From the NCBI GenBank assembly GCA_964386395.1, contig CAYLRV010000001.1, positions 23,807-87,806 on the forward strand: DNA of 64,000 bases, given 5' to 3'. Position 1 is the stretch's first letter. Every line of letters begins with the position of its first letter. The notes beneath the pieces were generated by a model. That model worked only from the letters and a program-made list of their open reading frames with translations. It was not told the origin of the DNA and did not search any database. The stretch is from an uncultured Chitinophaga sp. (GTDB taxonomy: Bacteria; Bacteroidota; Bacteroidia; Chitinophagales; Chitinophagaceae). Both the position numbers and the translations under genes were made by a program. Positions 4,573-40,095 of this stretch are shown piece after piece.

Positions 4573-5406
4573 CTATTCGTATTTTTTACTAAGCTGGTAC
4601 AATACTTTCAGCTGCTGGTCATTTAATCCCTTCGTTGTATCCTGCAACCAATGACGTTTGAAACCAATAATGGCTGCATTACTGTCCTTTGTATCATATC
4701 CAATGATCCGCAAGGCATGCAAACGATTGAAATTTGCAGGTAGCTGCACATTCGCTATATCATCATACCAGTACCCGAATCCTTTCTCCGATAATTGCTT
4801 CCAGGGAAAGCGCCAGTTGGGATCATTTTTACGGGTGGGCGCTATATCGCCGTGGCCGATAAAATTGGCTGCTGGTATGGAGTACGCATTTTTCAAACGG
4901 CCAAGCAGGGTGATCAAGCTATTTATTTGTGCTTCGGAAAAAGGCTCAAAGCCATTATTATCAAGTTCGATACCAACTGAAGAGGAATTTAAGTCAGTAG
5001 CATTGCCCCATTTGCTTACACCGGCATGGTGTGCCCTTAATAAATCATTGAGCATATGGTGCACGGTACCATCCTTACAAATTACATAGTGTGCACTTAC
5101 TTCACGGTTGCCTTTCACGGTAAACGTTCTTAACGTTTCCTCACAACTTTTCTGGGCAGTATGGTGGATGATCACATAGTTAGGCCGGCGTATGGTGAAG
5201 TTGATAGTACCAGCCCAATCCGCAGCATAATTCAATCCCGCGGAATCCTGTAAAGGATATTCAGCCAACAACTTTGCATATGCTTTTACCTGTTGCTTAT
5301 AAATTTTATTCGTACCCGCATATTTCGATTGCGAACAACCACAGGCAATAATAAGGAAGGCAAGGGACAGGGAAATGAACAAGCGGCTTTTTAAAAAGGA
5401 TTTCAT
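4573..5406 (-). CDS. N-acetylmuramoyl-L-alanine amidase, AmpD/PGRP (amidase_2) family lipoprotein
   Basis: Has a lipoprotein signal (LAFLIIACGC) and AmpD-like motifs (VIIHHTA, AHYVICKDGTVHHML, AHHAGVSKWG, GIELDN, HGDIAPTRKNDP). Confidence 0.8.
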   Translation of the reverse strand: MKSFLKSRLFISLSLAFLIIACGCSQSKYAGTNKIYKQQVKAYAKLLAEYPLQDSAGLNYAADWAGTINFTIRRPNYVIIHHTAQKSCEETLRTFTVKGNREVSAHYVICKDGTVHHMLNDLLRAHHAGVSKWGNATDLNSSSVGIELDNNGFEPFSEAQINSLITLLGRLKNAYSIPAANFIGHGDIAPTRKNDPNWRFPWKQLSEKGFGYWYDDIANVQLPANFNRLHALRIIGYDTKDSNAAIIGFKRHWLQDTTKGLNDQQLKVLYQLSKKYE

Positions 5407-5424: not shown

Positions 5425-6366
5425 TTACTGGTACTTGCGGTACAATGCATAGATTATTTTACGCACGGTGGCATTCATGGCACCACCAGAGCCATCCCGC
5501 ATAAAGTGGCGCTTAAATGCCGAAACAGCCGATGAAGGGGAGGATATATCATAGCCGATTATACGCAGCGCCATCAGGTAGTCGAACTGATCCGGAACAA
5601 CCATATTCGTCGTATCACTCCACCACAGACCATAGCCCTTGTCGCTGAAGTGTTTCCAGGGAAAGCGGAAATTGGGATCCATTTTTCGTGTAGGTGCTAT
5701 ATCACCATGGCCAATAAAATTGGCATCCGGAATTTTATACGCTCTCTTCAGGCGGCCCAGTAATATTTCAAGGCTTTGCATTTGTGCGTCGGCAAAAGCT
5801 TCGTACCCGGTATTTTCCAGCTCGATGCCAATGCTTGCAGAGTTGAGATCGGTGGTATTCCCCCATTTACCATCACCAGCATGATGCGAACGAAGTAAAT
5901 CATTCAGCATGTGATACACGGTTCCGTCACGGCAAATAAGATAATGTGAACTGGCCTCCCGGCCACCTGGTTTTGTAAATTCTGCCAGCACTTCCCTGAA
6001 TCCCTGGGTGGCTGTGTGATGAATGATAACAAAGTTGGGACGGCGTATGCCCATATTGGGCGTACCCACCCACTCTGCTGCATAAGGCAAGCCGGCTGAG
6101 TCTTCCAGCGGAAATTCAGCAATCACCCTTGCCAGTGAATCAATCATTTTATAATACAACCGGTTTGCGTAAGCGTACCTGCCTGTTGGCATGTATCTGG
6201 CGCTATCTTTTAAAGCTGAATCCAATGGATTTTTTACGATCGGATTGGGGTATTCTGTAATAGGTTGTTCACCCGGTGGTTGTGCAGCAACTGCGCCACA
6301 AAAGAGAAGGGTGGCGATTGCGGAGAGAACAGTCAAATGTTTACATATTGTTAAGGGCTTGTACAT
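5425..6366 (-). CDS. N-acetylmuramoyl-L-alanine amidase, AmpD/PGRP family (tandem paralog)
   Basis: Contains the same amidase_2 motifs (VIIHHTA, SHYLICRDGTVYHML, SHHAGDGKWG, HGDIAPTRKMDP) and is about 60% identical to the upstream paralog. Confidence 0.8.
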   Translation of the reverse strand: MYKPLTICKHLTVLSAIATLLFCGAVAAQPPGEQPITEYPNPIVKNPLDSALKDSARYMPTGRYAYANRLYYKMIDSLARVIAEFPLEDSAGLPYAAEWVGTPNMGIRRPNFVIIHHTATQGFREVLAEFTKPGGREASSHYLICRDGTVYHMLNDLLRSHHAGDGKWGNTTDLNSASIGIELENTGYEAFADAQMQSLEILLGRLKRAYKIPDANFIGHGDIAPTRKMDPNFRFPWKHFSDKGYGLWWSDTTNMVVPDQFDYLMALRIIGYDISSPSSAVSAFKRHFMRDGSGGAMNATVRKIIYALYRKYQ

Positions 6367-23247: not shown

Positions 23248-23628
23248 TTATTTCACCGCTATCATACTGATTTCCACATTTACAAACTTTGGCAGGGCGC
23301 CGGCTTGTACCGTTTCCCTGGCAGGAAAATCACCTTCAAAATATTTTCCGTACACTTCATTTACTTCAGAAAAACGGTGCATATCTGTAAGAAAGATGGT
23401 CGTCTTAACCACATTGCTGAAATCCATACCGGCTTCATGCAGTATTGCTTTCAGGTTGTGCATCACCTGATGTGCTTCTTCCTGGATATCCTTATTTTTT
23501 AAAGAGCCGGTAGCAGGATCAATACAAATTTGACCGGAAATAAACAGCATGCCGCCCGTAAGCACGGCCTGGTTATAAGGGCCAATAGGTGCAGGTGCCT
23601 GTGTTGTATTTATGATGGTTTTACTCAT
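23248..23628 (-). CDS. ridA: RidA family reactive-intermediate deaminase (YjgF/L-PSP)
   Basis: Matches RidA residues APAPIGPYNQAV...TTIFLTDM...ARETVQAGALP...VEISMIAV. The start was moved to MSKTII. Confidence 0.8.
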   Translation of the reverse strand: MSKTIINTTQAPAPIGPYNQAVLTGGMLFISGQICIDPATGSLKNKDIQEEAHQVMHNLKAILHEAGMDFSNVVKTTIFLTDMHRFSEVNEVYGKYFEGDFPARETVQAGALPKFVNVEISMIAVK

Positions 23629-23701
23629 TTGTTTATGATTATAATAAATAGTGCAGACGAAATTAGGTTTATACGTTTTCTTTGCAAAAAATAACACCTG
23701 C

Positions 23702-24325
23702 ATGATAGCGGTAATAGCAGATGCACTGCAACAAAAGGAGCTGGCGGGATATGGTATCACTGAAGATCAACCCATTATCTGGTTGACAGCACCTGCAACG
23801 CATAATGCCGCAACGGTGTATATAGACCTGCGTTATGATGGCAGTAAGGAGCGGATCGAATTACTCCGGCAACTGCCTGCCGAATGCATTATCATCAATG
23901 ATGTGGCTGGCAGCCTGCGGGATTTGCCTGCTAATTTTGCTCGTTTCAACGGCTGGCCCGGCTTTTTACAACAAGCTGCCGTTGAGTGTGCCGTGGCAAA
24001 TGAAATACTCAAACCGGTTGTAGAAGAAACCTTTGCTATTTTCTCCAGGAAAGTTGTATTTACTCCCGACACACCCGGTTTTATCAGTGCCCGCATTATC
24101 GCTATGATTATTAATGAAGCTTATCTTGCAGCAGCAGAAGGTGTGAGCATAAAGCCGGAAACTGATACGGCTATGAAAATGGGAACAAATTATCCATACG
24201 GACCATTTGAGTGGGCCGAAAAAATCGGGTTGCAAAACCTGCACGCACTACTGGTAGCAATGGCCGATACCAATAAGCGTTATACACCGGCGCCTATGCT
24301 CACGCATGAAGCCACTACAACATGA
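23702..24325 (+). CDS. 3-hydroxyacyl-CoA dehydrogenase family protein (C-terminal 3HCDH domain; N-terminal NAD motif degenerate)
   Basis: The C-terminal domain (PGFISARIIAMIINEAYLAAAEGVSIKPETDTAMKMGTNYPYGPFEWAEKIGL) is intact, but there is no clear GxGxxG at the N-terminus. Confidence 0.5.
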   Translation: MIAVIADALQQKELAGYGITEDQPIIWLTAPATHNAATVYIDLRYDGSKERIELLRQLPAECIIINDVAGSLRDLPANFARFNGWPGFLQQAAVECAVANEILKPVVEETFAIFSRKVVFTPDTPGFISARIIAMIINEAYLAAAEGVSIKPETDTAMKMGTNYPYGPFEWAEKIGLQNLHALLVAMADTNKRYTPAPMLTHEATTT

Positions 24326-29551: not shown

Positions 29552-29588
29552 AAAAGCCCGGTTTAGAACCGGGCTTTTGTTATTTACT
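29552..29588. terminator. bidirectional rho-independent terminator between convergent genes
   Basis: An AAAAGCCCGGTT...AACCGGGCTTTT hairpin sits between the 29533 (+) and 29584 (-) gene ends. Confidence 0.65.
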
Positions 29589-31035
29589 CTCCTACAACCT
29601 CCTCGCTTCCTTTCTTTCGCCAGGATCTATGTTTAGCCCCGTCCATTTTTACAATCTTCGGGGTAAACTTACCGACCACATCCACCAATGCCTTCTGTGA
29701 TTGCATCACAACATTAATATCCTTGTAGGCAAAAGGTGATTCATCCAGTCCGCCACCCAGCAGTTTTACGCCAAACTTATCCAGTTCGTCTTTCATCTGC
29801 TTATCGGTAACAGAAGCGATGGCCCTTGTACGGCTCATCTTCCGTCCGGCACCATGCGAGGCAGAGTTGACAGATGCGGATTCGCCTTTACCTTTTACAA
29901 TAAATCCATCGGCGGTCATTGAGCCCGGTATAATACCCAATACATCTTTACCTGCAGGTGTTGCGCCTTTACGGTGAACGATCACATCCTTACCTTCCCA
30001 TTTTTCTTTCCAGGCAAAATTGTGGTGATTCTCCACCATCTTCACTGGTTTACGTCCCAGTTGCTTCGCAATTTTGGCATGTATTACATGGTGACAGGCG
30101 CTGGCATAATCACCAGCCAGGTTCATTGCATTCCAATACTCTATGCCTTCTTCTTCATCCAGCAAAAGCCAGGCAAGATTTTTTGATTCCTGCGGCAAAC
30201 GCCTTTTGCTGATAGCCAGTTTAGTATAGTGGTTCGCTATGTTAGCACCTAGTGCCCGAGAACCGGAGTGAGTAAGAAAACCAATGTACTTACCAGCTTC
30301 TATACCCAATACCTGATCTTCTTCTGCAATATCCACGACGCCAAATTCGGCGAAGTGGTTACCCGACCCGGATGAACCTAACTGCTTCCACACACGGCCA
30401 TGCAATTTTTTCAGCATCGGTAGTTGAAAAAATAATTCATGCTCCATCACTTCGTGGTTAGCCGCCCGATCGAATTGTGCGCCGCTGCCAAACAATGTAG
30501 CCTCATTGATTTCACGGGCAAAATATGATTCCCGGTCCGTCAGATCTTTTGGGTTGATATCGAATACACTCAGGCACATACGGCATCCGATGTCTACTCC
30601 TACTCCGTAAGGGATAACAGCATTCTCGGTTGCCAGTACGCCACCGATTGGCAATCCATACCCGCTATGTGCATCTGGCATCAAGGCGCCGGCCACACTC
30701 ACCGGCAATTTAGCTGCCTGGTACATCTGGTGCATAGCGCCTTCTTCGATATGTTCCTGTCCAAATACATTAAACTGTATGCCGGTTTGGTTCAGCGAAA
30801 TTTCTGCCCCTTCCGTTTCTTTCTTTGGTATCAGCTGTTCTGCTATCAATGCAAGTACTGCGTCATTGCTGTACTCGATTGGATTGGCCAATACTTTTTG
30901 TAATAGTTCCATCACTTCCTCCTTTCCATGATGCTTATATTTTTTTTGCATCACATCCATTGCTATGCTAATTACCGGTCCTTCCGGGTAGCCAATAGTC
31001 CTTAGTTCTTTTCCTGTTATTTTTAGTTTACTCAT
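29584..31035 (-). CDS. rtcB: RNA 3'-phosphate/2',3'-cyclic-phosphate ligase RtcB (with about 70 aa N-terminal extension)
   Basis: RtcB metal and GTP-site motifs (MPDAHSGYGLP, GSGNHFAEFG, THSGSRALG, NHHNFAWKE, ASHGAGR) support the call. The start was set at MSKLKITG. Confidence 0.85.
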   Translation of the reverse strand: MSKLKITGKELRTIGYPEGPVISIAMDVMQKKYKHHGKEEVMELLQKVLANPIEYSNDAVLALIAEQLIPKKETEGAEISLNQTGIQFNVFGQEHIEEGAMHQMYQAAKLPVSVAGALMPDAHSGYGLPIGGVLATENAVIPYGVGVDIGCRMCLSVFDINPKDLTDRESYFAREINEATLFGSGAQFDRAANHEVMEHELFFQLPMLKKLHGRVWKQLGSSGSGNHFAEFGVVDIAEEDQVLGIEAGKYIGFLTHSGSRALGANIANHYTKLAISKRRLPQESKNLAWLLLDEEEGIEYWNAMNLAGDYASACHHVIHAKIAKQLGRKPVKMVENHHNFAWKEKWEGKDVIVHRKGATPAGKDVLGIIPGSMTADGFIVKGKGESASVNSASHGAGRKMSRTRAIASVTDKQMKDELDKFGVKLLGGGLDESPFAYKDINVVMQSQKALVDVVGKFTPKIVKMDGAKHRSWRKKGSEEVVGE

Positions 31036-31429
31036 TGTTTTGTTTTTTGAAACACGGTGACAGAGAGACAGGGGCGGCACAGTGTTTTTCGGTGTTGCCC
31101 TGTGTCGTTATGCCTTTGTGGTTCTATTTTTTGTTTACCAGCGACAGTAACTCCGGTCATCTTATGTTGCGTCGCACACTTCAGCTGCATATCCCTAATC
31201 ATCATAATCCCACATAATTTACCCTTTATTTAGATTCTCAAGCGCATCAATAAACTGTGCAACCCTTTCATCTTCTGACTCCTTGATAATAAAATCTAAC
31301 CGTTCAAAAGTATTTTCCAATAGAATTACAACAGTACAAGTGTGCGACGCAAGGGACGATGATAGAAGCAATACAGCCTGTAACATAAAAACATAAAACA
31401 TCCGGTACCGTTATAATACCGGATGTATA

Positions 31430-32527
31430 TTATTTACTTACCAAAATCTGCTTCAACTGCTCTAATAGCTGACCGTTACCGCCTACGCTGATATTGCTGA
31501 TTTTGTCGGCAATTTTCTCCACGTATTCCATTTCCTTCAGCTTCCAAAGCATGGCATTTTCTTCCATCAGTTTGGCTGTGTTCAGCAGGCTACGGGTGCT
31601 GGCAGTTTCTTCACGACGCATAATGGTGTTGGCCTGCGCCTTCTTTTCTGCCACCAGTACCTGGTTCATAATCTCTTTCATATCACCTGGCAGTATGATA
31701 TCACGAATACCAAAACCATTCACCGCAACACCCAATGCTTCTGCTTTTCCTTTCACACTTTGCAGGATAAAAGGAGCAATGGCTTCCTTCTTTTCCAGCA
31801 ATTCATCAAAGCCGAATCCGGCAATGTATTCACGCAGGGCCAGTTGCAGCGCCACGTACAGTTGCTTATCGTATTCTTTGTTCAGCACCATAGCTATTTC
31901 AAGGTCTGTTACGTTGTACTGTGACCAGGCATTGATACGCAATGCAGCCTTATCACGGGTCAGTATTTCCTGACCGTTGATTTCCAGTTGTTGCTGACGC
32001 ATATCTGCTTTCGCTACATGGATAGTGATACTGTTCTTCCACCAATAGTAGGTACCTGCATCCAGTTGCTTTACAAACTTACCATCTATGAACAACACCG
32101 CTTTCTCATAGCTTTGCACCTCGTAGTTACGCACCCAGTTGCTCACCGGTGCTTTTACCAGTACGGCACGGTCGATAGCCGTATCGATTTCAACCTGGCT
32201 GATATCAGCCCGAACGAAATCATTTTGCACAACAGATTTCCAGAATGCATAACGGCCGGCCGCCAGCACCTGCTTCAACAGGCCATTTTCGTATTGCAAC
32301 ACTATTTCTGTGTCTTTCACTTCCACTACCTGCAGTATAGCAGCCAGCTCCTTGTCCTGCAACAGGATGTTTAGTTCTACCGGTGCAGTGAATTGTTTGG
32401 TAATATCATAGATATATACCTGTTCGTTTTTCCAGAACCAGTAATTACCAGTCAGCAGCAGGCGCTTGTAGGCGCCATCTTTGAACACCAAACCAACCTG
32501 CCATGCGTTAATTTTTACTTTTTTCAT
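31430..32527 (-). CDS. SPFH/band-7 (flotillin/YqiK-like) protein
   Basis: Has an SPFH core and a C-terminal coiled region (RINAWSQYNV...EKKAQANTIMRREETASTRSLLNTAKLMEENAMLWKL). Confidence 0.7.
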   Translation of the reverse strand: MKKVKINAWQVGLVFKDGAYKRLLLTGNYWFWKNEQVYIYDITKQFTAPVELNILLQDKELAAILQVVEVKDTEIVLQYENGLLKQVLAAGRYAFWKSVVQNDFVRADISQVEIDTAIDRAVLVKAPVSNWVRNYEVQSYEKAVLFIDGKFVKQLDAGTYYWWKNSITIHVAKADMRQQQLEINGQEILTRDKAALRINAWSQYNVTDLEIAMVLNKEYDKQLYVALQLALREYIAGFGFDELLEKKEAIAPFILQSVKGKAEALGVAVNGFGIRDIILPGDMKEIMNQVLVAEKKAQANTIMRREETASTRSLLNTAKLMEENAMLWKLKEMEYVEKIADKISNISVGGNGQLLEQLKQILVSK

Positions 32528-32880
32528 TTTACTTGTTTTGCCCGTCAATAAACATTTATTTACTGTCAGCATGATTAATTAAAATAAAGCCGTGCTTGCC
32601 GCCACCAGTTACTACGGAATGAGATTAATACAACCCAGTTTCGTACAGTTCTTCACTCCCTCATCAGCTATACGTATATAACAAACTATGAGTGACGAAG
32701 TATAGTCAACTTCATTATACGCTTCTTATTTCGGGTAGCTGCCCGGCTGTATTGGTACAGGCTGCTTTAGCGTCCCGACCAATTACAGGCAACAAACCCG
32801 GCTTTTATCGGTCACCATTTTTTGAGAAGTGGTGTACTTCTTTGATACAAGCATCCTAAGTGCTTTGCGTTTACCATTTC

Positions 32881-33163: not shown

Positions 33164-34240
33164 TTAATTCATCAATGTCTCCGGCAGGCGAAACCCAATT
33201 ATCTCGGTCTGCTTTACTTCCTGCTGCTTTTCATGCGGGTTGGCGATCTCCGCTATTGTCATCGGACCGGTTATTGTTTTATCATATCCCAAATGTTCGC
33301 TTAGCCGCTGCGCTTTTTCTTTACTGAGCTTTCCGAATTCATAACGGGCTATCAACCTTCCTTTCCGCAACAGGGCACTGTCAATGGCTGTCAGTGAACT
33401 GTTGAATGTGCATATCAATTGCACATTCAGGAAGTCGGCCAGCAGACCATCTGATATATTCAGCAGGTTACTCACCGCTGAACTGCTGTTTTGCTTCCTG
33501 TCCATGATAATATTCTCGGCATCTTCAATTATCAAGACTGTATTCGGGTTATTGATCAGCAGTTCGATAAACTCAGGGTTCATCAGGTTTCCCGCTACCG
33601 ATGGTGAAAGGAATAAAACCCTTTTCTTTACCTTACCCACCAGGTACCGTAAATAGGTTGTCTTTCCTGTACCCGGTAAACCATGCAGCAGTACAATACC
33701 TTTGTCATTCTTTTGCCTGAGCCTTTTTTGTATGACCGTATCCACATCTTTAAAATCGTCTTCGTAAAAAAGTCCCAGATCCAGCTTTGTCCGTTTTATT
33801 TCCATCGCCCGCAGATCCATCGAATTCCGGCTTTGCACAATCAGGTTGATCTCCAATGGCTGCCGGCGTTGCCTTTCTTTAAACTGAAGGGCAATGGCAA
33901 CAATCGCTTTTACCAGTTCCCCGTCACTGCCATCGTGGAGTATTTCGCAATAGTCATCCTCCAGCTCCACAATACAGTTTTGTTGCAACACAATAAGCGT
34001 TTTATCAAACTGAAATTTCTTCTTTTTACGCTTGTACCAGGTCGTCCGATGAATGTTCTTTATTGATTGCGCAAATTTCTCCTGCAATACAGCAAACACC
34101 TTCTCCCCTTCCACATCGCTGATAAAATTGATGTTTGGCAGTGCGTTAAAACTGTACAGGTACAACATCTTTGCGTCCAGGAAAGAGTCGCCAAACACAT
34201 TGTTTGCGTTTATAACTTTCTGACTGTATAGATTTTCCAT
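33164..34240 (-). CDS. AAA+ ATPase with a roughly 180 aa N-terminal domain of unknown function
   Basis: Has a Walker A (LLHGLPGTGKTT), a Walker B (VLIIEDAEN) and the AAA sensor-2 motif LLRKGRL. It lies directly downstream of the tRNA array and the DUF458-like gene on the same strand. Confidence 0.7.
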   Translation of the reverse strand: MENLYSQKVINANNVFGDSFLDAKMLYLYSFNALPNINFISDVEGEKVFAVLQEKFAQSIKNIHRTTWYKRKKKKFQFDKTLIVLQQNCIVELEDDYCEILHDGSDGELVKAIVAIALQFKERQRRQPLEINLIVQSRNSMDLRAMEIKRTKLDLGLFYEDDFKDVDTVIQKRLRQKNDKGIVLLHGLPGTGKTTYLRYLVGKVKKRVLFLSPSVAGNLMNPEFIELLINNPNTVLIIEDAENIIMDRKQNSSSAVSNLLNISDGLLADFLNVQLICTFNSSLTAIDSALLRKGRLIARYEFGKLSKEKAQRLSEHLGYDKTITGPMTIAEIANPHEKQQEVKQTEIIGFRLPETLMN

Positions 34241-34341
34241 TGTCTTACATTTTAGCTGTTCCGTTGCCGGTAACAGTGTTCCTATTAATTTTTCGTTCCT
34301 TTCCTAATCTCCCGCCCGCAGGCAGGAGACCGAAAAGGTTG

Positions 34342-34848
34342 TTACTGTACCACTTTATTTGCACAGCTGGAGCTGGCAAAAGCTTCCGGTTTAGCCTTGA
34401 AAGCAAAACCCCTGCCTGTCCGGCAGGCAGGCATTCCCATGATATAGCCCATAGCTTCCTTCAGGGCATCGTTACTTTTAAAGTTTGGGTTGGTGTTGAT
34501 GTCCGCATGCACTTCCATATCCACACTGTAGCGGCTGAATATGTTGCACAGTGCATAGGCTACTTCGATACTTTTCTGTACTTCCATCAACATCCGTTCT
34601 TTAATCGTCATACGCTGGCGGGTTGTTTCATTATGGATATACATGAAACCACCTTTCCCTTTCCGGATGAATACGATTACCGTGGCAAACTCAGTCACCC
34701 TGGCTTTCACCTGGCTATCGGTACCAATGCAGACTTTCAATTCATGTCCATTCTCTTTTTCCTGCATCAATACACGGCTTACCTCTTCCGCAATCGGGAT
34801 TTGAATCCGTTCACCGGTCAATTTTCTCCATTGTTGTTCCTGTTCCAT
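34342..34848 (-). CDS. hypothetical protein, possibly DUF458 (YkuK-like RNase-H-fold) family
   Basis: A 168 aa ORF with VCIGTDSQ and GKGG motifs that recall the DUF458 family. It starts about 25 nt downstream of the last tRNA-like unit on the same strand. Confidence 0.4.
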   Translation of the reverse strand: MEQEQQWRKLTGERIQIPIAEEVSRVLMQEKENGHELKVCIGTDSQVKARVTEFATVIVFIRKGKGGFMYIHNETTRQRMTIKERMLMEVQKSIEVAYALCNIFSRYSVDMEVHADINTNPNFKSNDALKEAMGYIMGMPACRTGRGFAFKAKPEAFASSSCANKVVQ

Positions 34849-34871
34849 TGTTTTTGTTTTTCAATGTTGTG

Positions 34872-34945
34872 CTGCATAAGTACAAGGATTCGATCCACCT
34901 CCGGTGGATTGTAAGCCATTATGCTACCGTTACATCATACTTGCT
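34872..34945 (-). pseudogene. degenerate tRNA-like unit (CTTACAA anticodon-like loop, no foldable T-arm)
   Basis: A T-loop-like GGATTCGATCC and a D-region are present, but no consistent acceptor or T stems could be found. Confidence 0.25.
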
Positions 34946-34948
34946 TTT

Positions 34949-35021
34949 GTGGACAAAACAGGATTCGAACCTGTACTGCTGCGGCTTCAACGCAGTGCTC
35001 TGCCATTGGAGCTATTTGTCC
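34949..35021 (-). tRNA. tRNA-Phe (GAA)
   Basis: Manual fold: acceptor GGACAAA/TTTGTCC, D-arm GCTC-CAATGGCA-GAGC, anticodon arm CTGCG-TTGAAGC-CGCAG and T-arm ACAGG-TTCGAAT-CCTGT. Confidence 0.8.
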
Positions 35022-35115
35022 TTTTGTTTGTACCTGCACTGGCTGATCTTTTACACTTCATCACCGAATTGTGTTGCACAAACTCTGTCTTCCCGCCATA
35101 GCGGAATTATCATTG

Positions 35116-35203
35116 CGGAGAGTAAAGGATTCGAACCTTTGTACCGTTGTGAACGACAGCCCAAGCTTAGCAGGCTGGCACATTACCACTCTGTCAACCC
35201 TCC
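35116..35203 (-). tRNA. tRNA-Ser (GCU), type II
   Basis: Manual fold: acceptor GGAGGGT/ACTCTCC with one GU pair, a 3-bp D stem, anticodon loop CTGCTAA with one mismatch in its stem, a variable-arm hairpin and T-arm AAAGG-TTCGAAT-CCTTT. Confidence 0.55.
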
Positions 35204-35207
35204 TTTG

Positions 35208-35291
35208 TGTGATTAATAAGATTCGAACTTATTCAGCCCGAAGGCAACGGTTTTACAGACCGTTACGACTCTCCGTCTTCGTCGTACTCAC
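35208..35291 (-). tRNA. tRNA-Tyr (GUA), type II
   Basis: Manual fold: anticodon arm ACGGT-CTGTAAA-ACCGT, variable arm GCC-TTCG-GGC and T-arm ATAAG-TTCGAAT-CTTAT, with one G-A mismatch in the acceptor. It sits 4 nt from the Ser gene. Confidence 0.6.
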
Positions 35292-35302
35292 CAAAATTTC
35301 AG

Positions 35303-35379
35303 CGGATGAAGAAAGGGTCGAACTTTCAACCATCGGCTTAACATCCGCCACTGGCGGACTGCCATTGAGCTATTCATCC
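35303..35379 (-). pseudogene. non-canonical tRNA-like unit (77 nt)
   Basis: The acceptor GGATGAA/TTCATCC is perfect and the T-arm GAAAG-TTCGACC-CTTTC is present. The D-stem 3' half and anticodon arm are replaced by a CCGCC-AGT-GGCGG hairpin. Confidence 0.35.
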
Positions 35380-35383
35380 ATTG

Positions 35384-35457
35384 TTGTCCCGGTGAGATTC
35401 GAACTCACAACCCCCCGGTTAAAAGCCGGGTACATCTTCCAGTTGAGCTACGAGACA
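35384..35457 (-). tRNA. tRNA-Lys (UUU), with a weak D-stem
   Basis: The anticodon arm CCCGG-CTTTTAA-CCGGG and T-arm GTGAG-TTCGAAT-CTCAC fold well, and the acceptor holds with one GU pair. Only 2 of 4 D-stem pairs form. It lies 4 nt from the previous unit. Confidence 0.5.
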
Positions 35458-35463
35458 TTTTTG

Positions 35464-35555
35464 TTGCGGCTACCGGATTCACTGTCTGCCGACAGGCAGG
35501 GAACCAGTAACTCCTGCCATGTAAAAACAGCTTTCTCCCATTGAATTAAGCCGCA
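35464..35555 (-). tRNA. tRNA-Val (UAC)-like carrying a 20-nt insertion in the T-loop (35481..35500)
   Basis: The acceptor TGCGGCT/AGCCGCA is perfect and the anticodon loop is TTTACAT. The T-loop reads ATTC[ACTGTCTGCCGACAGGCAGG]GAA on the plus strand. Confidence 0.45.
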
Positions 35556-35572
35556 CTGCTTCATAAGGTTTG

Positions 35573-35644
35573 TGATGGTTGACAGATTCGAACTGTCAGC
35601 CGCTATCGTATCAGGATAGTACTCTGCCATTGAGTTAAACCATC
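35573..35644 (-). tRNA. tRNA-Ile (GAU)
   Basis: Manual fold gives a perfect cloverleaf: acceptor GATGGTT/AACCATC, D-arm ACTC-AATGGCA-GAGT, anticodon arm CTATC-CTGATAC-GATAG and T-arm GACAG-TTCGAAT-CTGTC. Confidence 0.75.
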
Positions 35645-35648
35645 ATTG

Positions 35649-35720
35649 TTGCGGCTGCCAGATTCGAACCAGCATTTGAAGCTTATGAGACTTCTGAGTT
35701 AGCCATTACGCTAAACCGCA
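35649..35720 (-). tRNA. tRNA-Met/Ile2 (CAU)
   Basis: Manual fold: acceptor with one GU pair, anticodon arm GAAGT-CTCATAA-GCTTC and a T-stem with two GU pairs. It sits 4 nt from the Ile gene. Confidence 0.5.
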
Positions 35721-35729
35721 ATTAATATG

Positions 35730-35803
35730 TAAGCCTGGTGAGAATCGAACTCACACTACATGGCTTCTAAGGCCATTGCCTCTCCCAATTGGGCTACAAG
35801 CTT
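35730..35803 (-). tRNA. class-I-shaped tRNA with Leu anticodon UAG (non-canonical: short variable arm)
   Basis: The anticodon arm ATGGC-CTTAGAA-GCCAT folds cleanly. The variable region is 5 nt, the D stem is 3 bp, the T-arm is GTGAG-TTCGATT-CTCAC and the discriminator is A. Confidence 0.5.
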
Positions 35804-35813
35804 ATTTCATTTG

Positions 35814-35886
35814 TCGGCCAGACTGGATTCGAACCAGTAACCTTTTGCGTATAAGGCAACTGCTCACACCGTTGAGCTACAGGCCG
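35814..35886 (-). tRNA. tRNA with anticodon UAU (Ile-like)
   Basis: The D-arm GCTC-AACGGTGT-GAGC folds, the anticodon loop is CTTATAC and the T-arm is ACTGG-TTCGAAT-CCAGT. The acceptor has one mismatch. Confidence 0.5.
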
Positions 35887-35894
35887 CTTGTTTG

Positions 35895-35987
35895 CTGACT
35901 CAGAAAGATTCCCTGCCAGTCGGCAGACAGGGAACTTTCATCTCCTCATTCGTAGTGAGGTGTTCTTCTCCATTGAACTATAAGTCA
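35895..35987 (-). tRNA. tRNA-Arg (ACG) carrying a 20-nt insertion in the T-loop (35912..35931)
   Basis: The rest of the cloverleaf is otherwise canonical: acceptor TGACTTA/TGAGTCA, D-arm GTTC-AATGGAGAA-GAAC and anticodon arm CCTCA-CTACGAA-TGAGG. The T-loop reads ATTC[CCTGCCAGTCGGCAGACAGG]GAA on the plus strand. Confidence 0.5.
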
Positions 35988-35993
35988 TCATTG

Positions 35994-36109
35994 TACGGCT
36001 TCAGGAATTCCTGCCTGGCCGGCAGCCAGGGAACCTCTGCAACGATCACCTGCTATTTTCCTCTCAGAAAGAAAGGGAGGTGATTATGTTTCCATTACAA
36101 CAAGCCGTA
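35994..36109 (-). pseudogene. tRNA-like unit with a 20-nt T-loop insertion (36011..36030) and a second roughly 21-nt expansion of the anticodon loop
   Basis: The acceptor ACGGCTT/AAGCCGT is perfect and the D-arm is recognisable. A 6-bp stem (ATCACC/GGTGAT) closes a 28-nt loop, and the T-loop carries the insertion CTGCCTGGCCGGCAGCCAGG. Confidence 0.3.
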
Positions 36110-36111
36110 TT

Positions 36112-36186
36112 GGGTGCACTGCGGGGCTCGAACCCTGTTCTCCCGATGCACAGTCGGGCACTTTACCAAATAAGCTACAGCCACCA
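36112..36186 (-). pseudogene. tRNA-His (GUG)-like, probably degenerate
   Basis: The 5' half matches tRNA-His very well (G-1 GTGGCTG TA GCTT..., anticodon arm CCCGA-CTGTGCA-TCGGG). The T-stem has only 3 pairs, and the 3' acceptor strand is disrupted (GTGCACTG rather than GTGGCTG). Confidence 0.35.
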
Positions 36187-36190
36187 TCTG

Positions 36191-36282
36191 TTACCCGGCT
36201 CAGACTCCCTGTCTGCTGACAGGCAGGGAACTGAGAATACCAGACTCAAATTCTGGTGTGTTGCCAATTACACCACCCGGTA
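36191..36282 (-). tRNA. tRNA-Gln (UUG)-like carrying a 20-nt insertion in the T-loop (36208..36227)
   Basis: Manual fold: anticodon arm CCAGA-ATTTGAG-TCTGG, D-arm GTGT/ACAC and T-stem CTCAG/CTGAG flanking ACTC[CCTGTCTGCTGACAGGCAGG]GAA. The acceptor has one G-G mismatch. Confidence 0.45.
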
Positions 36283-36455
36283 ATCGTGCAGCATGAGTGA
36301 ATCCCTGTCTGCAGACTGGAAGTGAACATGCAGCCTTCCGCCGCGGCGGATATCCGGCCAATCGAAATGCTCCTATATTTTGCTCAAAGAACTTTTGGAA
36401 AAGCATCCCCGCTGCACCTGCGGGGAGCTTTGTCCCTCCTTCTGCACATAATCTG

Positions 36456-36590
36456 TTAACGCAGTTCATATTCTGCAGGGTGACGAACTTTGCAGTTGGT
36501 CATTCCTTTGTGATGAACATTGCTTTTATTTTCTTTCTTTATCAGCACTTTCACTATAAAGTGAATGGCCAGTACTATCAGTAAAAATTT
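36456..36590 (-). CDS. possible small hydrophobic protein (45 aa)
   Basis: The ORF reads MKFLLIVLAIHFIVKVLIKKENKSNVHHKGMTNCKVRHPAEYELR, with one predicted TM helix followed by a basic tail. It lies downstream of a strong minus-strand terminator. Confidence 0.2.
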   Translation of the reverse strand, partial: KFLLIVLAIHFIVKVLIKKENKSNVHHKGMTNCKVRHPAEYELR

Positions 36591-36679
36591 CATAGCTACC
36601 TCCTTTCTATTAACTGCATTTTTTATTTCCGCACTCTTCACCAATTGATTTCCTAACACTTCAACGACGGGAAATCTTT

Positions 36680-36750
36680 GTGGCAACCCACCTTCGCCAA
36701 AGCTTCGGTGGGTAAATAAAAAAACCCGGTCGTTTTTAGCGACCGGGTTT
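36680..36750 (-). terminator. repeat unit A: hairpin ACCCACC...GGTGGGT followed by a strong terminator (CCCGGTCG...CGACCGGG plus T7 on the minus strand)
   Basis: Both hairpins were read directly from the sequence, and this unit is a copy of the one at 37045..37112. Confidence 0.55.
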
Positions 36751-37044
36751 CCTGGCAAGCACAATTGTACTTACCTATGGATTGTCCGGTCGCCGATGGT
36801 GATCATTCTCATTACCTATGGGCACAATACTCCTGTTCGCTTGCGCAGAGCAATAGCATATGGCTGATAGTTGATCATTCATCGTTTGACTAAATCGTTT
36901 ATGTCGTAATAGTTTCAGCATTCTTTATTTTTCGGTTACAATAGATTCAAAACTTTTCCGATTACATAACTATTTTTCTTGTCCACTTACACTGAAGCTT
37001 GGGATTATCGCTTTCGCTTGCGCTGTGGGTAACACTTCTTCGCC

Positions 37045-37331: not shown

Positions 37332-37739
37332 TCAAATATCAACTGAATCATACACTATTACTTTACTCCACAAATGCGAATATTCCTCAATGAAAAGCAG
37401 GTGAATGGGATCAGTTTGATAACTCGCATGGTCTGCATCATTTTCAAAATACACCAGCCAGGATACAGCATAGCCTCTTTCAATTACTTCACGATTAGTA
37501 TCAGCCGGTTTACCAATCCGGAAACTTTTTATCGTTTTTACTTTCGATAATTTATGCAAACCTTCCACTAATTTTTCCCTGTCAGCAAGATTGTCCGTAT
37601 TCTTTAACCAGAAGAATACATGATGAATAAATGCAGCCTTCTTTTTGCCAGTTGATTTTGTTCCTGAAAAAGAAGATAACCCTGTTACGAGTGCGGCTGC
37701 ACCTGCTTTATTGATAAATTGTTTGCGGGTTTGTTTCAT
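37332..37739 (-). CDS. Dabb (stress-responsive alpha/beta-barrel) domain protein
   Basis: Matches the Dabb fold (FIHHVFFWLKN...VKTIKSFRIGKP...YQTDPIHLLFIEE). The start was set at MKQTRKQF. Confidence 0.6.
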   Translation of the reverse strand: MKQTRKQFINKAGAAALVTGLSSFSGTKSTGKKKAAFIHHVFFWLKNTDNLADREKLVEGLHKLSKVKTIKSFRIGKPADTNREVIERGYAVSWLVYFENDADHASYQTDPIHLLFIEEYSHLWSKVIVYDSVDI

Positions 37740-37800
37740 GATGCCTGTATTTTCGGCATAAGGTAATGCAAAATTAAATGCCGGCAATCGCAGACCTGTT

Positions 37801-38910
37801 TCAAAACAACCTCCCCTGCCCGCCCGGTACCTGGAACTTACTCCTGTCAAGGCTCCATTCCTCCGCATTCATGCCGTATAGCTTACCGTATTTTTTATAC
37901 TGCATCGCTACCATCTCTGCGATATTCCCTTCGCCACGCATGCGTACGCCCCATCGGGTATCATTTACTTTTCCATCGTGGCTTTGTTCGATCAGGTGCC
38001 ACACTTTATCTGCCCTGTCGGGAAAGTTCTTATATAACCAGTCGTGAAATAGAAATTTTATCGCCCCGTTGAGCCGTATGAATGTATACGCTGTAAAGGT
38101 TGCGCCGTTGTCCTTCGCTGCTTTCATGATACGCTGCATTTCATGTTCATTCAGGCCCGGTATCATCGGCCCCATCATGATGCCCATCCGTACTCCTGCG
38201 CTGCTTAACTCGTTTATCACTTTCAGTTTTTGCTTAGCTGTGGTGGTGCGTGGCTCCATTGCCCTTCGCAGATCTTCATTGAAGGATGTAATGGATACCA
38301 TGGCTGACACAATCTGTTTCTTGCCCATTTCCTGCAGCACATCCTTGTCCTTCAGTATCCAGGAGTTTTTGGTGAGTATACCTACCGGCTGGTTAAATTC
38401 ATTGCAGACTTCCAGTAATCCTCTCGTCAGCCGGTATTTTTGTTCGGCAGGCTGGTAGCAATCGGTATTGCCACTGAGCATGATCGGCGTGGCATCCCAA
38501 TCCTTTTTCATCAGGAATTTTCGCAGCAGTTGTGGTGCATTTTTCTTGACAATTATTTTTCGCTCAAAATCCAGCCCGGCACTGTAACCCCAGTATTCAT
38601 GCACATTTCTTGCATAGCAATAGATGCAGCCATGCTCGCACCCGGCATACGGGTTCATGCTGTACATCATTCCCACATCCCTGCTCTCTACTTTGTTTAC
38701 GATGGTTTTTGATTCCTGTTCCATGTAAATAGTTGGCACATTTGATTCTTCCCAGTCGTCAATGCCTTCAATGTGCTCTCTTGTTGTTTCATTTTTTAAA
38801 AACCGGTTCTTTGTATTGAACTGGGCACCGCGACCGGCGAGGTAGGGCTTTGTTTCTTCAGGTTGCTTCACTTCTACTTTGAAATGATCTTGTTGCAAAT
38901 CCTTGCTCAT
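37801..38910 (-). CDS. radical SAM protein, SplB/Rv2578c-like (DNA-repair-photolyase-like family)
   Basis: Has the CxxxCxxC cluster motif (GCEHGCIYCYARN) and a family-typical length. Confidence 0.7.
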   Translation of the reverse strand: MSKDLQQDHFKVEVKQPEETKPYLAGRGAQFNTKNRFLKNETTREHIEGIDDWEESNVPTIYMEQESKTIVNKVESRDVGMMYSMNPYAGCEHGCIYCYARNVHEYWGYSAGLDFERKIIVKKNAPQLLRKFLMKKDWDATPIMLSGNTDCYQPAEQKYRLTRGLLEVCNEFNQPVGILTKNSWILKDKDVLQEMGKKQIVSAMVSITSFNEDLRRAMEPRTTTAKQKLKVINELSSAGVRMGIMMGPMIPGLNEHEMQRIMKAAKDNGATFTAYTFIRLNGAIKFLFHDWLYKNFPDRADKVWHLIEQSHDGKVNDTRWGVRMRGEGNIAEMVAMQYKKYGKLYGMNAEEWSLDRSKFQVPGGQGRLF

Positions 38911-39044: not shown

Positions 39045-39461
39045 TTAAAGAATCATCCTTTTAATGCCATCTTTCATAAGCGGTGCGTGAAAATTTAATA
39101 CATAGCCAAGCCGCTTTTGTGTAAGGCGCAGGTAACTTAATAGCTGGGCATCCCAAACGGGATGATAGTTATCCTGCGCTTTCAATTCAACAATTATTAA
39201 ATTGTCAATCAATATATCAATCCGAAGACCATCACTAATGATCAATTTATCGTATACCAGTTCTACATTTTTTTGAACAACAAACGGAATATCCCTTTTG
39301 GTCAATTCATAACAGAAGCATTTTTCATACACACTTTCAATTAAGCCCGGACCGAGAAACCTATGGATCTTTATAGCAATATCCATTATTTGATATGTCA
39401 GCCATATTTCCCTTTCGGTTAAAGGTTTATGCTTTTTTTCTGTGCCGCTCCGTGCCGTCAT
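39045..39461 (-). CDS. GxxExxY protein (PD-(D/E)xK nuclease-fold family)
   Basis: Carries the signature HRFLGPGLIESVYEKCFCYEL, and the start was set at MTARSG. The family is typically found in rRNA/tRNA-proximal positions in Bacteroidota and cyanobacteria. Confidence 0.65.
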   Translation of the reverse strand: MTARSGTEKKHKPLTEREIWLTYQIMDIAIKIHRFLGPGLIESVYEKCFCYELTKRDIPFVVQKNVELVYDKLIISDGLRIDILIDNLIIVELKAQDNYHPVWDAQLLSYLRLTQKRLGYVLNFHAPLMKDGIKRMIL

Positions 39462-39483
39462 GCCGCTGTGGTTCAAAATATAA

Positions 39484-40095
39484 TCAGAATAACTCCCCCT
39501 GCTTCGTTGCAACCGGCAGGTTCTGGAATTGGAATGTTGCTGCAATACGATATTTCATTTCCCCCACCGGCCGTTTGAGCAAAGTCATGCCATCAGCAAT
39601 AAACCGACCGGTAAAATGCTTTTGACTATACTCCAGCCAGCCCTTTTCATACTGCCAGGGCTTTAATTTCCGGGCAATGGTCAGGTGGGGCTCCATGATA
39701 AAATGCGGTTTATTATCCTCGTTCAGTTTCATCAGGCGCTGGCTTTCTGTACGGATGCTTTTTACCAGGCCTTGTACCGGTAATTTGCTGGTTACATTGA
39801 TATAAATAGTATGCGCCGGAAAACTGCCAAAATCTTTCAGCTCCACTTTAAATGGCGGGAAGCCCATGGCCACATTCCGCAGCCGGTTTAGTATCCGTTC
39901 TTCCAGCATGGCATGCTGCACAAAATTGACCAGCGTAATATGCGGCTTGCCCCATCTTGCATGATCCGATTTGTACGCAGTAGCAAAATCCTCCTTCACT
40001 TTCATTATCCTTTTCCATAGCTCTTCGTGCGGACTAAGCACCAATAAGTACTCATATTCCCGGTAGCCCGGGATCGTGTTGATAATACTTTCCAT
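39484..40095 (-). CDS. 2H-phosphoesterase superfamily protein (LigT/ThpR-like RNA 2',3'-cyclic phosphodiesterase / 2'-5' RNA ligase)
   Basis: Two H-x-T/S-x motifs are present (HITL and HLTI) in a protein of about 200 aa. Confidence 0.7.
   Translation of the reverse strand: MESIINTIPGYREYEYLLVLSPHEELWKRIMKVKEDFATAYKSDHARWGKPHITLVNFVQHAMLEERILNRLRNVAMGFPPFKVELKDFGSFPAHTIYINVTSKLPVQGLVKSIRTESQRLMKLNEDNKPHFIMEPHLTIARKLKPWQYEKGWLEYSQKHFTGRFIADGMTLLKRPVGEMKYRIAATFQFQNLPVATKQGELF

Follow-up and report, generated by a model that had tools for sequence, protein, structure and literature searches.

Why should a bacterial chromosome carry a tightly packed row of tRNA genes in which regular members stand next to visibly damaged ones? 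The question is raised by a 64-kb stretch of DNA from an uncultured Chitinophaga sp. (assembly GCA_964386395.1, contig CAYLRV010000001.1), hereafter the window, in which about 1.5 kb of the minus strand are filled with such genes. A sequence-only reading of the window had described this mosaic as the pattern of a tRNA array carried by a mobile element or phage, or else of a rapidly evolving supplementary tRNA set; our analysis supports the second part of that proposal and not the first. We consider it fairly probable that the locus is a chromosomal long tRNA array (L-array) within a cluster of RNA-repair and translation-stress genes, that it forms a reserve set of tRNAs, and that its mosaic look is secondary and due to selfish mini-palindromes.

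The tRNA array and its units

The array comprises 16 tRNA-derived units and one conserved non-tRNA hairpin, all on the minus strand at 34875-36376. In an L-array, ten or more tRNA genes follow one another on the same strand at very short distances, and 16 units within 1.5 kb agree with this. Spacers of 3-10 nt separate the units. Those of 3-5 nt can be read directly in the sequence, and CAAT and CAAA are frequent among them in the coding sense; on the plus strand, these are the ATTG and TTTG reported before as 4-nt spacers. ARAGORN called seven tRNAs, namely Phe-GAA, Ser-GCU, Lys-UUU, Ile-GAU, Met-CAU, Leu-UAG, and Ile-UAU. Rfam model RF00005 matched nine units at its gathering score, including a His-GUG and an Asn-derived unit (36.3 and 33.2 bits), and Tyr-GUA was the tenth, with 38 bits in E-value mode (gathering score 29). 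Two further units stayed below threshold in that mode (26.2 and 23.6 bits). Rfam was run on the window and 18 related loci, with gathering as well as permissive thresholds, and matched no family but tRNA. With ARAGORN applied after deletion of the inserts described below, and with Rfam, a tRNA body or anticodon is readable in 13 of the 16 units; the suspicion that most of them are sub-threshold pseudogenes is therefore not borne out.

The dense minus-strand array claimed by the sequence-only reading is thus real, and its count of 15 tRNA-like units within 34872-36282 was correct. One more Pro-derived remnant lies upstream of that span (36286-36376), and a unit-sized segment (35022-35114) proved not to be tRNA-derived. 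Phe-GAA and Ile-GAU, which it had folded as canonical, and Ser-GCU, Met-CAU, and Tyr-GUA, folded as near-canonical, received scores in keeping with this (bits in the list below). We also recovered the Lys-UUU unit, the unit with a UAU anticodon, the class-I-sized UAG unit with A73, the His-GUG unit with a good 5' half and a defective 3' strand of the acceptor stem, and the two units in which a triloop hairpin replaces the normal anticodon arm (TCCGCC-AGT-GGCGGA in U11 and TCCACC-GGA-GGTGGA in U16). What had been overlooked is a palindromic insert in the T-loop, the main cause of the non-canonical look.

This GC-rich palindrome stands exactly between C56 and G57 (TTC|GA) in five window units, for instance as GGTTC-[CCTGCCTGTCAGCAGACAGG]-GAGTC. 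Three copies fit a strict pattern that gave no match in 100 shuffles of the window, and two are variants, 21 nt long in U03 and short in U00. Once the 20 nt are deleted, ARAGORN calls Gln-UUG, Arg-ACG, and Val-UAC. Several genes here thus escape tRNA finders, a palindrome in the T- or D-loop masking a tRNA that is intact apart from it. According to RNAfold predictions for U01 and U04, the T-stem, the TTC and GA flanks, and the palindrome merge into one long hairpin, and the remaining cloverleaf stays; on this model, the interrupted copies probably function poorly or not at all in translation. In the 64 kb scanned, every convincing copy of the palindrome falls within 34308-36349. The features of the array, all on the minus strand, are as follows.

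36286-36376, minus: U00, tRNA-Pro remnant, anticodon arm replaced by a TCCGCC-GCG-GCGGA hairpin
36303-36319, minus: short palindromic insert in the T-loop region of U00
36191-36282, minus: U01, tRNA-Gln(UUG), called by ARAGORN after deletion of the 20-nt palindrome (36208-36227) between C56 and G57
36113-36184, minus: U02, tRNA-His(GUG)-derived, acceptor 3' strand damaged; Rfam, 36.3 bits
35997-36108, minus: U03, tRNA-like RNA with a 21-nt palindrome variant (36010-36030) in the T-loop
35895-35988, minus: U04, tRNA-Arg(ACG), called by ARAGORN after deletion of the 20-nt palindrome (35912-35931) in the T-loop
35813-35886, minus: U05, tRNA with anticodon UAU (Ile); ARAGORN; Rfam, 64.2 bits
35729-35803, minus: U06, class-I-sized tRNA (75 nt) with the Leu anticodon UAG and A73; Rfam, 59 bits
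35648-35720, minus: U07, tRNA(CAU); ARAGORN; Rfam, 49.8 bits
35572-35644, minus: U08, tRNA-Ile(GAU); ARAGORN; Rfam, 65.8 bits
35464-35555, minus: U09, tRNA-Val(UAC), called by ARAGORN after deletion of the 20-nt palindrome (35481-35500) in the T-loop
35383-35457, minus: U10, tRNA-Lys(UUU); ARAGORN; Rfam, 53.5 bits
35303-35379, minus: U11, tRNA-Asn(GUU)-derived; Rfam, 33.2 bits
35208-35291, minus: U12, tRNA-Tyr(GUA); Rfam in E-value mode, 38 bits
35115-35203, minus: U13, tRNA-Ser(GCU); ARAGORN; Rfam, 52.8 bits
35026-35083, minus: conserved non-tRNA hairpin RNA of about 58 nt between Ser and Phe
34949-35021, minus: U15, tRNA-Phe(GAA), 96% identical to the L072 copy; ARAGORN; Rfam, 63.5 bits
34875-34944, minus: U16, degenerate tRNA-like unit with a TCCACC-GGA-GGTGGA hairpin; Rfam, 23.6 bits, sub-threshold

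Conservation of the array in related genomes

Relatives for comparison came from a DNA scan (L072 and L028) or were fetched via homologues of the YkuK protein encoded next to the array (L243-L246). L072 is a syntenic Chitinophagaceae metagenome-assembled genome (MAG), whose RtcB is 84% identical to that of the window. In all relatives compared, a gene-free gap filled with tRNAs precedes the YkuK gene; ARAGORN called 14 tRNAs in the gap of L245 (two with an irregular anticodon call), 11 in L243, eight in L246, and five in L244. The genes around the gap keep their order, with LigT, GxxExxY, and radical SAM before the array and YkuK, AAA, slipin, and RtcB after it. Synteny of the upstream genes was seen in L028, L243, and L245, and YkuK adjoins the array in L072 and L243-L246. 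Variable extras in the islands of the relatives are Fic, PcfJ, SduA_C, SRAP, and an MmeI-type enzyme.

The order of the tRNAs is broadly kept as well, running Glu, Asp, Gln, His, Arg, Ile, Met, Ile, Val, Lys, Asn, Tyr, Ser, Phe, Trp. Identity between orthologous units is only 75-95%, against 85-91% between the neighbouring YkuK proteins, and the Gln orthologues (n = 5) showed compensatory changes at 13 of 22 cloverleaf pairs. Conserved synteny, fast divergence, and compensatory changes together mark the array as a chromosomal feature that is conserved as such but changes quickly within structural limits. A rapidly evolving supplementary set is therefore supported: the same site is occupied in at least six relatives, the content varies, and the tRNAs diverge quickly with the cloverleaf kept.

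Comparison with the orthologues also clarified single units. The position and the 5' half of U00 are homologous to tRNA-Pro-UGG of L028 (3301-3374); neither ARAGORN nor Rfam called a tRNA in U00, and its fold z-score is -0.2. U01 has one G.G mismatch in its acceptor stem. The orthologues of the damaged U02 are intact tRNA-His genes. U03 has kept its acceptor, D, and T arms and carries an arm of 7 + 6 bp with a 5-nt loop (UUUCU) instead of an anticodon arm; its orthologue in L245 (about 5592-5685) has the same long arm with a covarying outer stem and an intact T-loop, and such a unit may act together with the repair proteins as an RNA that does not decode. For U06, the orthologue in L243 displays a CAG anticodon and a compensatory change from G-C to A-U in the anticodon stem. 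The class-I "Leu" unit may derive from the Ile-UAU group, which it resembles and whose anticodon differs from UAG by a single substitution. U10 is 95% identical to the copies in L243 and L246. In U11, an additional TCCGCCAGT pairs with the 5' strand of the anticodon stem and creates the hairpin at 35344-35358, and the orthologue in L072 is a normal Asn-GUU except for a palindrome in the T-loop. U16 probably stems from tRNA-Trp, as L072 has an intact tRNA-Trp at this place.

The hairpin RNA of about 58 nt was found in seven of seven arrays, its consensus having 22 pairs, six of them with compensatory changes; in the window, a TTCCGC-TATG-GCGGGAA hairpin (35090-35106) precedes it. No Rfam family matched this RNA, the U03-type long-arm unit, or the insert-bearing T-arm in the window and the 18 related loci. 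As side observations, the copy of the hairpin RNA in L243 has a 20-nt palindrome in its loop, and L028 contains a tRNA-like unit (3375-3560) whose anticodon region is enlarged by about 110 inserted nt.

Gene neighbourhood

The array shares its strand with the whole gene run, from LigT to a small ORF upstream and from YkuK to RtcB downstream. With RtcB, a 2H phosphoesterase, a YkuK RNase H-like protein, a slipin, and an AAA ATPase encoded on one strand, the neighbourhood is also that of an L-array. The features around the array are:

39484-40095, minus: 2H/LigT phosphoesterase, upstream
39045-39545, minus: GxxExxY PD-(D/E)XK protein, upstream
37801-38910, minus: PA0069-family radical SAM protein, upstream
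37332-37868, minus: Dabb protein, upstream
36456-36764, minus: small ORF, upstream
36406-36426, minus: terminator-like hairpin CCCCGC/GCGGGG followed by TTTT, between the small ORF and the array
34342-34848, minus: YkuK/DUF458 RNase H-like gene directly downstream of the array (PF04308, E = 2e-34)
34411-34431, minus: palindrome copy of 21 nt within the YkuK/DUF458 coding sequence, encoding PACRTGR
33164-34240, minus: AAA ATPase (Pfam)
31430-32572, minus: SPFH/slipin (Pfam)
29584-31080, minus: RtcB RNA ligase (Pfam)

The terminator-like hairpin may control entry into the array; in L072, it was seen with a compensated stem, CCCTGC/GCAGGG. An exact-sequence look-up of the window YkuK protein gave no record, and PADLOC defence models showed no meaningful match for the island proteins. 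Past the island, UmuD/UmuC and ordinary chromosomal genes follow. An L-PSP endoribonuclease gene (23248-23760, minus strand) lies about 6 kb past the RtcB end of the island and 11 kb from the array.

The palindrome in tRNA genes and beyond

Among the close relatives, the insert is present in some orthologues and absent from others. In Arg-ACG, it occupies the T-loop in the window and in L246 and the D-loop (G18|G19) in L028, and it is missing from L245; since the T-stem is the same, the insert in the window and L246 is shared by descent. The L246 copy has lost U33, which hints at decay after insertion. The insert in Gln was found in the window only, orthologues without it being present in L244, L245, L243, and L028, and that in Asn in L072 only; the Val orthologue of L243 has none. 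L243 carries the palindrome in a D-loop and in non-tRNA spacers, and L244 and L245 are free of it.

When one genome per species was scanned, the T-loop-insert pattern was present at no fewer than 120 loci. A T-arm with at least four of five stem pairs followed by the 3' acceptor strand of a tRNA was present in 82 of the 138 matches listed, and 47 of these 82 T-arm copies had the consensus, the perfect palindrome CCTGCCTGCCGGCAGGCAGG. The hosts among the matches listed include Bacteroidota, Patescibacteria, Bdellovibrionota/Bdellovibrionales, Omnitrophota, Elusimicrobiota, and others. Imperfect variants occur in both orientations, the commonest with four forward and six reverse copies among the matches listed, and in the window the palindrome of U04 has the orientation type opposite to that of U01 and U09. 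Insertion of one sequence either way round accounts for the apparent covariation and suggests that it takes place at the DNA level.

The palindrome is not specific to tRNA T-loops, and the idea that it is was rejected. An unbiased sample of metagenome contigs, searched for the bare 20-mer, contained at least 127 perfect copies; none of the 127 listed was flanked by TTC|GA, and in no case did ARAGORN call a tRNA at the site once the palindrome was taken out. Many metagenome copies stand amid degenerate heptamer-like direct repeats, and among the matches listed 37 lie within ORFs 200 aa or more in length. In ORFs that extend at least 60 aa to either side, 18 of the matches listed are in frame, against three of a frameshift type that would need a 20- or 22-nt deletion to recover the frame. 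In-frame hosts include PheS, AtpA (ATP synthase alpha), SecA, ParB, PurH, UvrC, and LigA (NAD-ligase), the palindrome in essential genes being located at L131, L161, L204, L233, L159, L151, and L177. The palindrome is open in all three frames and is read as LPAGRQ, CLPAGR, or PACRQAG. The window offers an example of its own, as the YkuK copy adds the seven residues PACRTGR between GYIMGM and GFAFKAK; most homologues, of 161-162 aa, are without this insert, some possess it, and others carry different 9-aa inserts there. A further SACPAGR-like insert was noted near the N-terminus of the YkuK homologue P0052.

A second family of mini-palindromes, TCCGCC-N3-5-GGCGGA, gave 17 strict matches against 0.25 expected in 1.69 Mb of window and fetched loci. 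Its strict copy in the window (35344-35358) accounts for the triloop hairpin of U11; looser variants stand at 36335-36349, where the arm of U00 is shorter, and at 35090-35106, and 16 further copies were present in the fetched loci. Copies of this family often lie within tRNA-like units.

As a separate observation, the first palindrome was also seen within a longer dispersed repeat, …AATGTCGTTTAGTTAGTGAAAACAGAC-[palindrome]-TCGCTCAGTCTGAC…, which has many copies per genome and is unconnected to tRNA genes. It was found at L015, L033, L059, L062, L064, L088, L093, L094, and L108 (Draconibacterium MAG, for L015-L064 by record title), and at L013, L018, L043, and L058 (Kuenenia).

A GIY-YIG gene linked to the palindrome

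Clustering of the neighbours of the palindrome, in genomes as well as in metagenomes, revealed a single recurrent partner, an ORF of about 80-117 aa that consists of a GIY-YIG catalytic domain only. Over all loci, this ORF gave 32 tblastn matches. Where a tRNA is nearby, the nearest one lies on the same strand in nearly all cases and mostly 0-100 nt away, and the palindrome is usually on the opposite side of the ORF, inside a partial copy of that tRNA. The layouts are thus tRNA, ORF, and 3' fragment with a T-loop palindrome, or 5' fragment with a D-region palindrome, ORF, and tRNA. L057 (3838-5115) displays four tandem tRNA/GIY-YIG units of 300 nt after a tRNA-Arg, and L097 (3997-4600) an interrupted Arg-CCU, an intact Arg-CCU, two T-arm fragments, and the ORF. 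Further wedged GIY-YIG genes were found in L098, L102, L008, L084, L024, L071, L092, L096, L166, L216, and L221, Arg isoacceptors being the commonest hosts at such sites. Directly downstream of the mini GIY-YIG ORF of L097, about ten tandem repeats of about 21 nt (AACATTCATAACAGCGAAGCC-like) were noted at 4620-4830. That the palindrome halves are terminal repeats of the ORF was rejected, as the ORF adjoins a complete palindrome.

One possibility is that the ORF encodes a homing-type nuclease and that the palindrome would mark an immune or scarred site. More broadly, the palindrome and its partner of about 80 aa might form an undescribed mobile system that crosses phyla and targets tRNA genes, where it would leave behind an intact tRNA, the nuclease gene, and a partial tRNA copy marked by the palindrome, with solo palindromes spreading to tRNA loops, to repeats, and in frame to essential genes, and with the Chitinophagaceae array as a preferred landing site. 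We regard this as possible, but put it forward only tentatively. The window has no GIY-YIG ORF, so its copies would be solo elements.

Alternative explanations

Several points weigh against selfish insertion into a redundant reserve set. Besides the missing GIY-YIG gene in the window, no transposase accompanies the palindrome, and no consistent target-site duplication surrounds it, a minority of copies standing in heptamer-like repeats. Five of the seven window copies occupy exactly the same T-loop position, and the insertion points in the D-loop (G18|G19) and in the T-loop adjoin one and the same tertiary pair, G19:C56. Selection acting on the RNA, and not tolerance alone, could be behind this pattern. 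The Gln, Arg, and Val bodies are still intact despite their inserts. Redundancy with housekeeping tRNAs is a surmise made from 64 kb of genome, and no promoter of the array was found with a sigma-70 scan that does not cover Bacteroidota promoters.

The shared site leads to a reading in which the T- and D-loop palindromes are functional RNA modules of the mature RNA that stack on or replace the tRNA elbow and act as decoys or protein handles for YkuK, AAA, slipin, or RtcB. Paired changes between variants preserve the hairpin stems, the Arg-ACG insert has persisted on the same T-stem in the window and L246, and the array also holds conserved non-decoding RNAs. However, the paired changes are explained by one sequence inserted either way round, the same palindrome also turns up within protein genes, amid heptamer repeats, and elsewhere in tRNAs, the L245 and L244 orthologues are without any palindrome, and the L246 copy lacks U33. 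We consider such modules unlikely.

Equally, we find it improbable that the whole array is a decaying, non-functional relic. At least five window units are defective (U00, U02, perhaps U03, U11, and U16), three to five carry inserts, and the arrays of L244 and L072 are short. Yet the array is kept in all relatives examined, L245 combines 14 ARAGORN calls with the absence of any palindrome, compensatory substitutions are plentiful, and eight or nine window units reach 50-66 bits.

The arrival of the array by phage or another mobile element, as the sequence-only reading had proposed, appears quite unlikely to us. A mosaic of canonical and degenerate tRNAs is indeed found in phage and plasmid tRNA clusters, and UmuDC and variable defence-type genes (Shedu SduA_C, MmeI-type restriction-modification, Fic) lie near the island in relatives. 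But in at least six Chitinophagaceae genomes the island keeps its place on the chromosome and the genes on either side, its flanks are RNA-repair and stress genes, and no phage, integrase, transposase, or plasmid families were found among 20 neighbouring proteins with Pfam and PHROGs. The G+C content is uniform over the window, and blastn against phage and plasmid collections gave only generic matches of single-tRNA size with 73-81% identity. In viral contigs, the T-loop-insert pattern had only two chance matches, both within coding sequence.

Archaeal non-canonical introns in the D- and T-loops of tRNAs are spliced by EndA and RtcB, and the palindromes resemble them as short intervening sequences in loops of otherwise intact tRNAs, with RtcB, a 2H phosphoesterase, and a PD-(D/E)XK protein encoded in one gene run. 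A bacterial counterpart, in which a nearby nuclease would cut and RtcB rejoin, is nevertheless hardly credible, since there is no EndA, no bulge-helix-bulge can form (the prediction is a single unbroken helix in which the TTC and GA(A/G/T) flanks extend the palindrome), more than 100 other T-loop-insert loci have no RtcB within 8 kb except the close relative L072, orthologous tRNAs of close relatives are without the insert despite the same RtcB cluster, and the element is translated in frame in proteins, including the adjacent YkuK, which indicates, if indirectly, that it is not removed from RNA and is no intron.

Relation to known systems and biological meaning

The explanation we favour, a chromosomal reserve array colonised by palindromes, ties in with what is known of tRNA arrays. 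Tyr, His, Asn, and Asp tRNAs are targets of the anticodon nuclease colicin E5, Arg tRNAs of colicin D, and Lys tRNAs of PrrC, and eukaryotic-type toxins attack Gln, Glu, and Lys tRNAs. The conserved array members include what we take to be classic anticodon-nuclease targets. The Bacteroidetes are among the phyla with long tRNA arrays, and genes for RNA processing, rtcB included, are over-represented around such arrays (PMC8421152). In cyanobacteria, such arrays are silent until translation is impaired (PMC8421152). In Anabaena, the repressor TrcR jointly controls the trn array and genes for rtcB, slipin, an AAA ATPase, and L-PSP endoribonuclease (PMC10272220). The array described here is a member of this known kind, directly fused to an RtcB/slipin/AAA/YkuK cluster. 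It is like the trn operon of Anabaena PCC 7120 in its many tRNA genes on one strand, very short spacers, aberrant members, and association with rtcB and RNA processing. In Anabaena, however, the regulon is dispersed and the array lies on a megaplasmid, whereas here array, RtcB, slipin, AAA ATPase, and YkuK are contiguous on the chromosome, and no TrcR-type repressor or direct-repeat operator was identified at the Chitinophagaceae locus. By this comparison, the locus would be the Chitinophagaceae version of an Anabaena-type response that joins reserve tRNAs to an RNA ligase.

We picture its workings as follows. The array would be co-expressed with the flanking genes under translational stress or ribotoxin attack and would supply spare Gln, His, Arg, Lys, Asn, Tyr, Ile, Met, Ser, Phe, and Val isoacceptors, and RtcB would meanwhile reseal cleaved RNAs. 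The two mini-palindrome families, CCTGCCTGCCGGCAGGCAGG-like and TCCGCC-N3-5-GGCGGA-like, would insert at the DNA level into loops of the units, several of which may then decay. As selfish or mutational insertions, palindromes would persist where they do little harm, that is, in the loops of a redundant array, in surface loops of proteins, and in intergenic DNA. Insertion and local decay would thus explain the mosaic of canonical and non-canonical units.

U03, with its long non-decoding arm, also recalls the YrlA/Y RNAs of rsr-rtcBA operons, which are tRNA-like non-coding RNAs beside RtcB. A YrlA/Y RNA proper (RF02553) was rejected, as the best score was 19.1 bits against a gathering score of 69 and fell on units other than U03; no Ro/TROVE family was found among the scanned neighbours.

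The palindromes, for their part, behave like the Rickettsia palindromic elements (RPEs), selfish repeats that also insert into RNA genes. RPEs are abundant in intergenic and protein-coding regions (PMC1779305). Both are dispersed, lie in intergenic DNA as well as in frame, add a tolerated peptide, and are present in some lineages only; the palindrome studied here is likewise multi-copy, polymorphic in presence and absence, and found in protein and RNA genes. They differ in that RPEs measure 100-150 bp and are confined to Rickettsia, whereas the present element has 20-21 nt, occurs in many phyla, displays no sequence similarity to them, and is linked to a GIY-YIG gene. RPEs proper were therefore rejected on size and on the unrelated host phyla, the behaviour alone being alike. 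REP elements, which are extragenic imperfect palindromes accompanied by a Y1 (RAYT) transposase gene, do not fit either, with many copies intragenic and GIY-YIG as the only recurrent neighbour, in a comparison that did not include a genome-wide RAYT search. Free-standing GIY-YIG homing endonuclease genes such as T4 SegB reside in phage tRNA clusters. Like SegB, the ORF of about 80 aa directly adjoins tRNA genes or stands between them, which would suit a spread driven by the nuclease, but it is a catalytic domain without a DNA-binding domain, is chromosomal, and is flanked by a partial tRNA copy bearing the palindrome. No description of the CCTGCCTGCCGGCAGGCAGG-type palindrome was found in the literature searched or in Rfam, and colonisation of L-arrays by palindromes is unreported in that literature; as far as could be found, it is an undescribed variant of gene-invading palindromic repeats.

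Beyond this locus, tRNA finders probably miss palindrome-interrupted genes in many other genomes too, and the seven residues that the palindrome adds to proteins (LPAGRQ, PACRQAG, and CLPAGR types) matter for annotation. That the palindrome occurs in many phyla, and is linked to a minimal GIY-YIG gene beside partly duplicated tRNAs, suggests a mechanism of insertion for which we found no description in the literature searched. For the Chitinophagaceae, an array physically tied to functions that are co-repressed in Anabaena strengthens the idea of a conserved alliance of reserve tRNAs and RNA repair, and offers a compact locus in which such a response can be tested.

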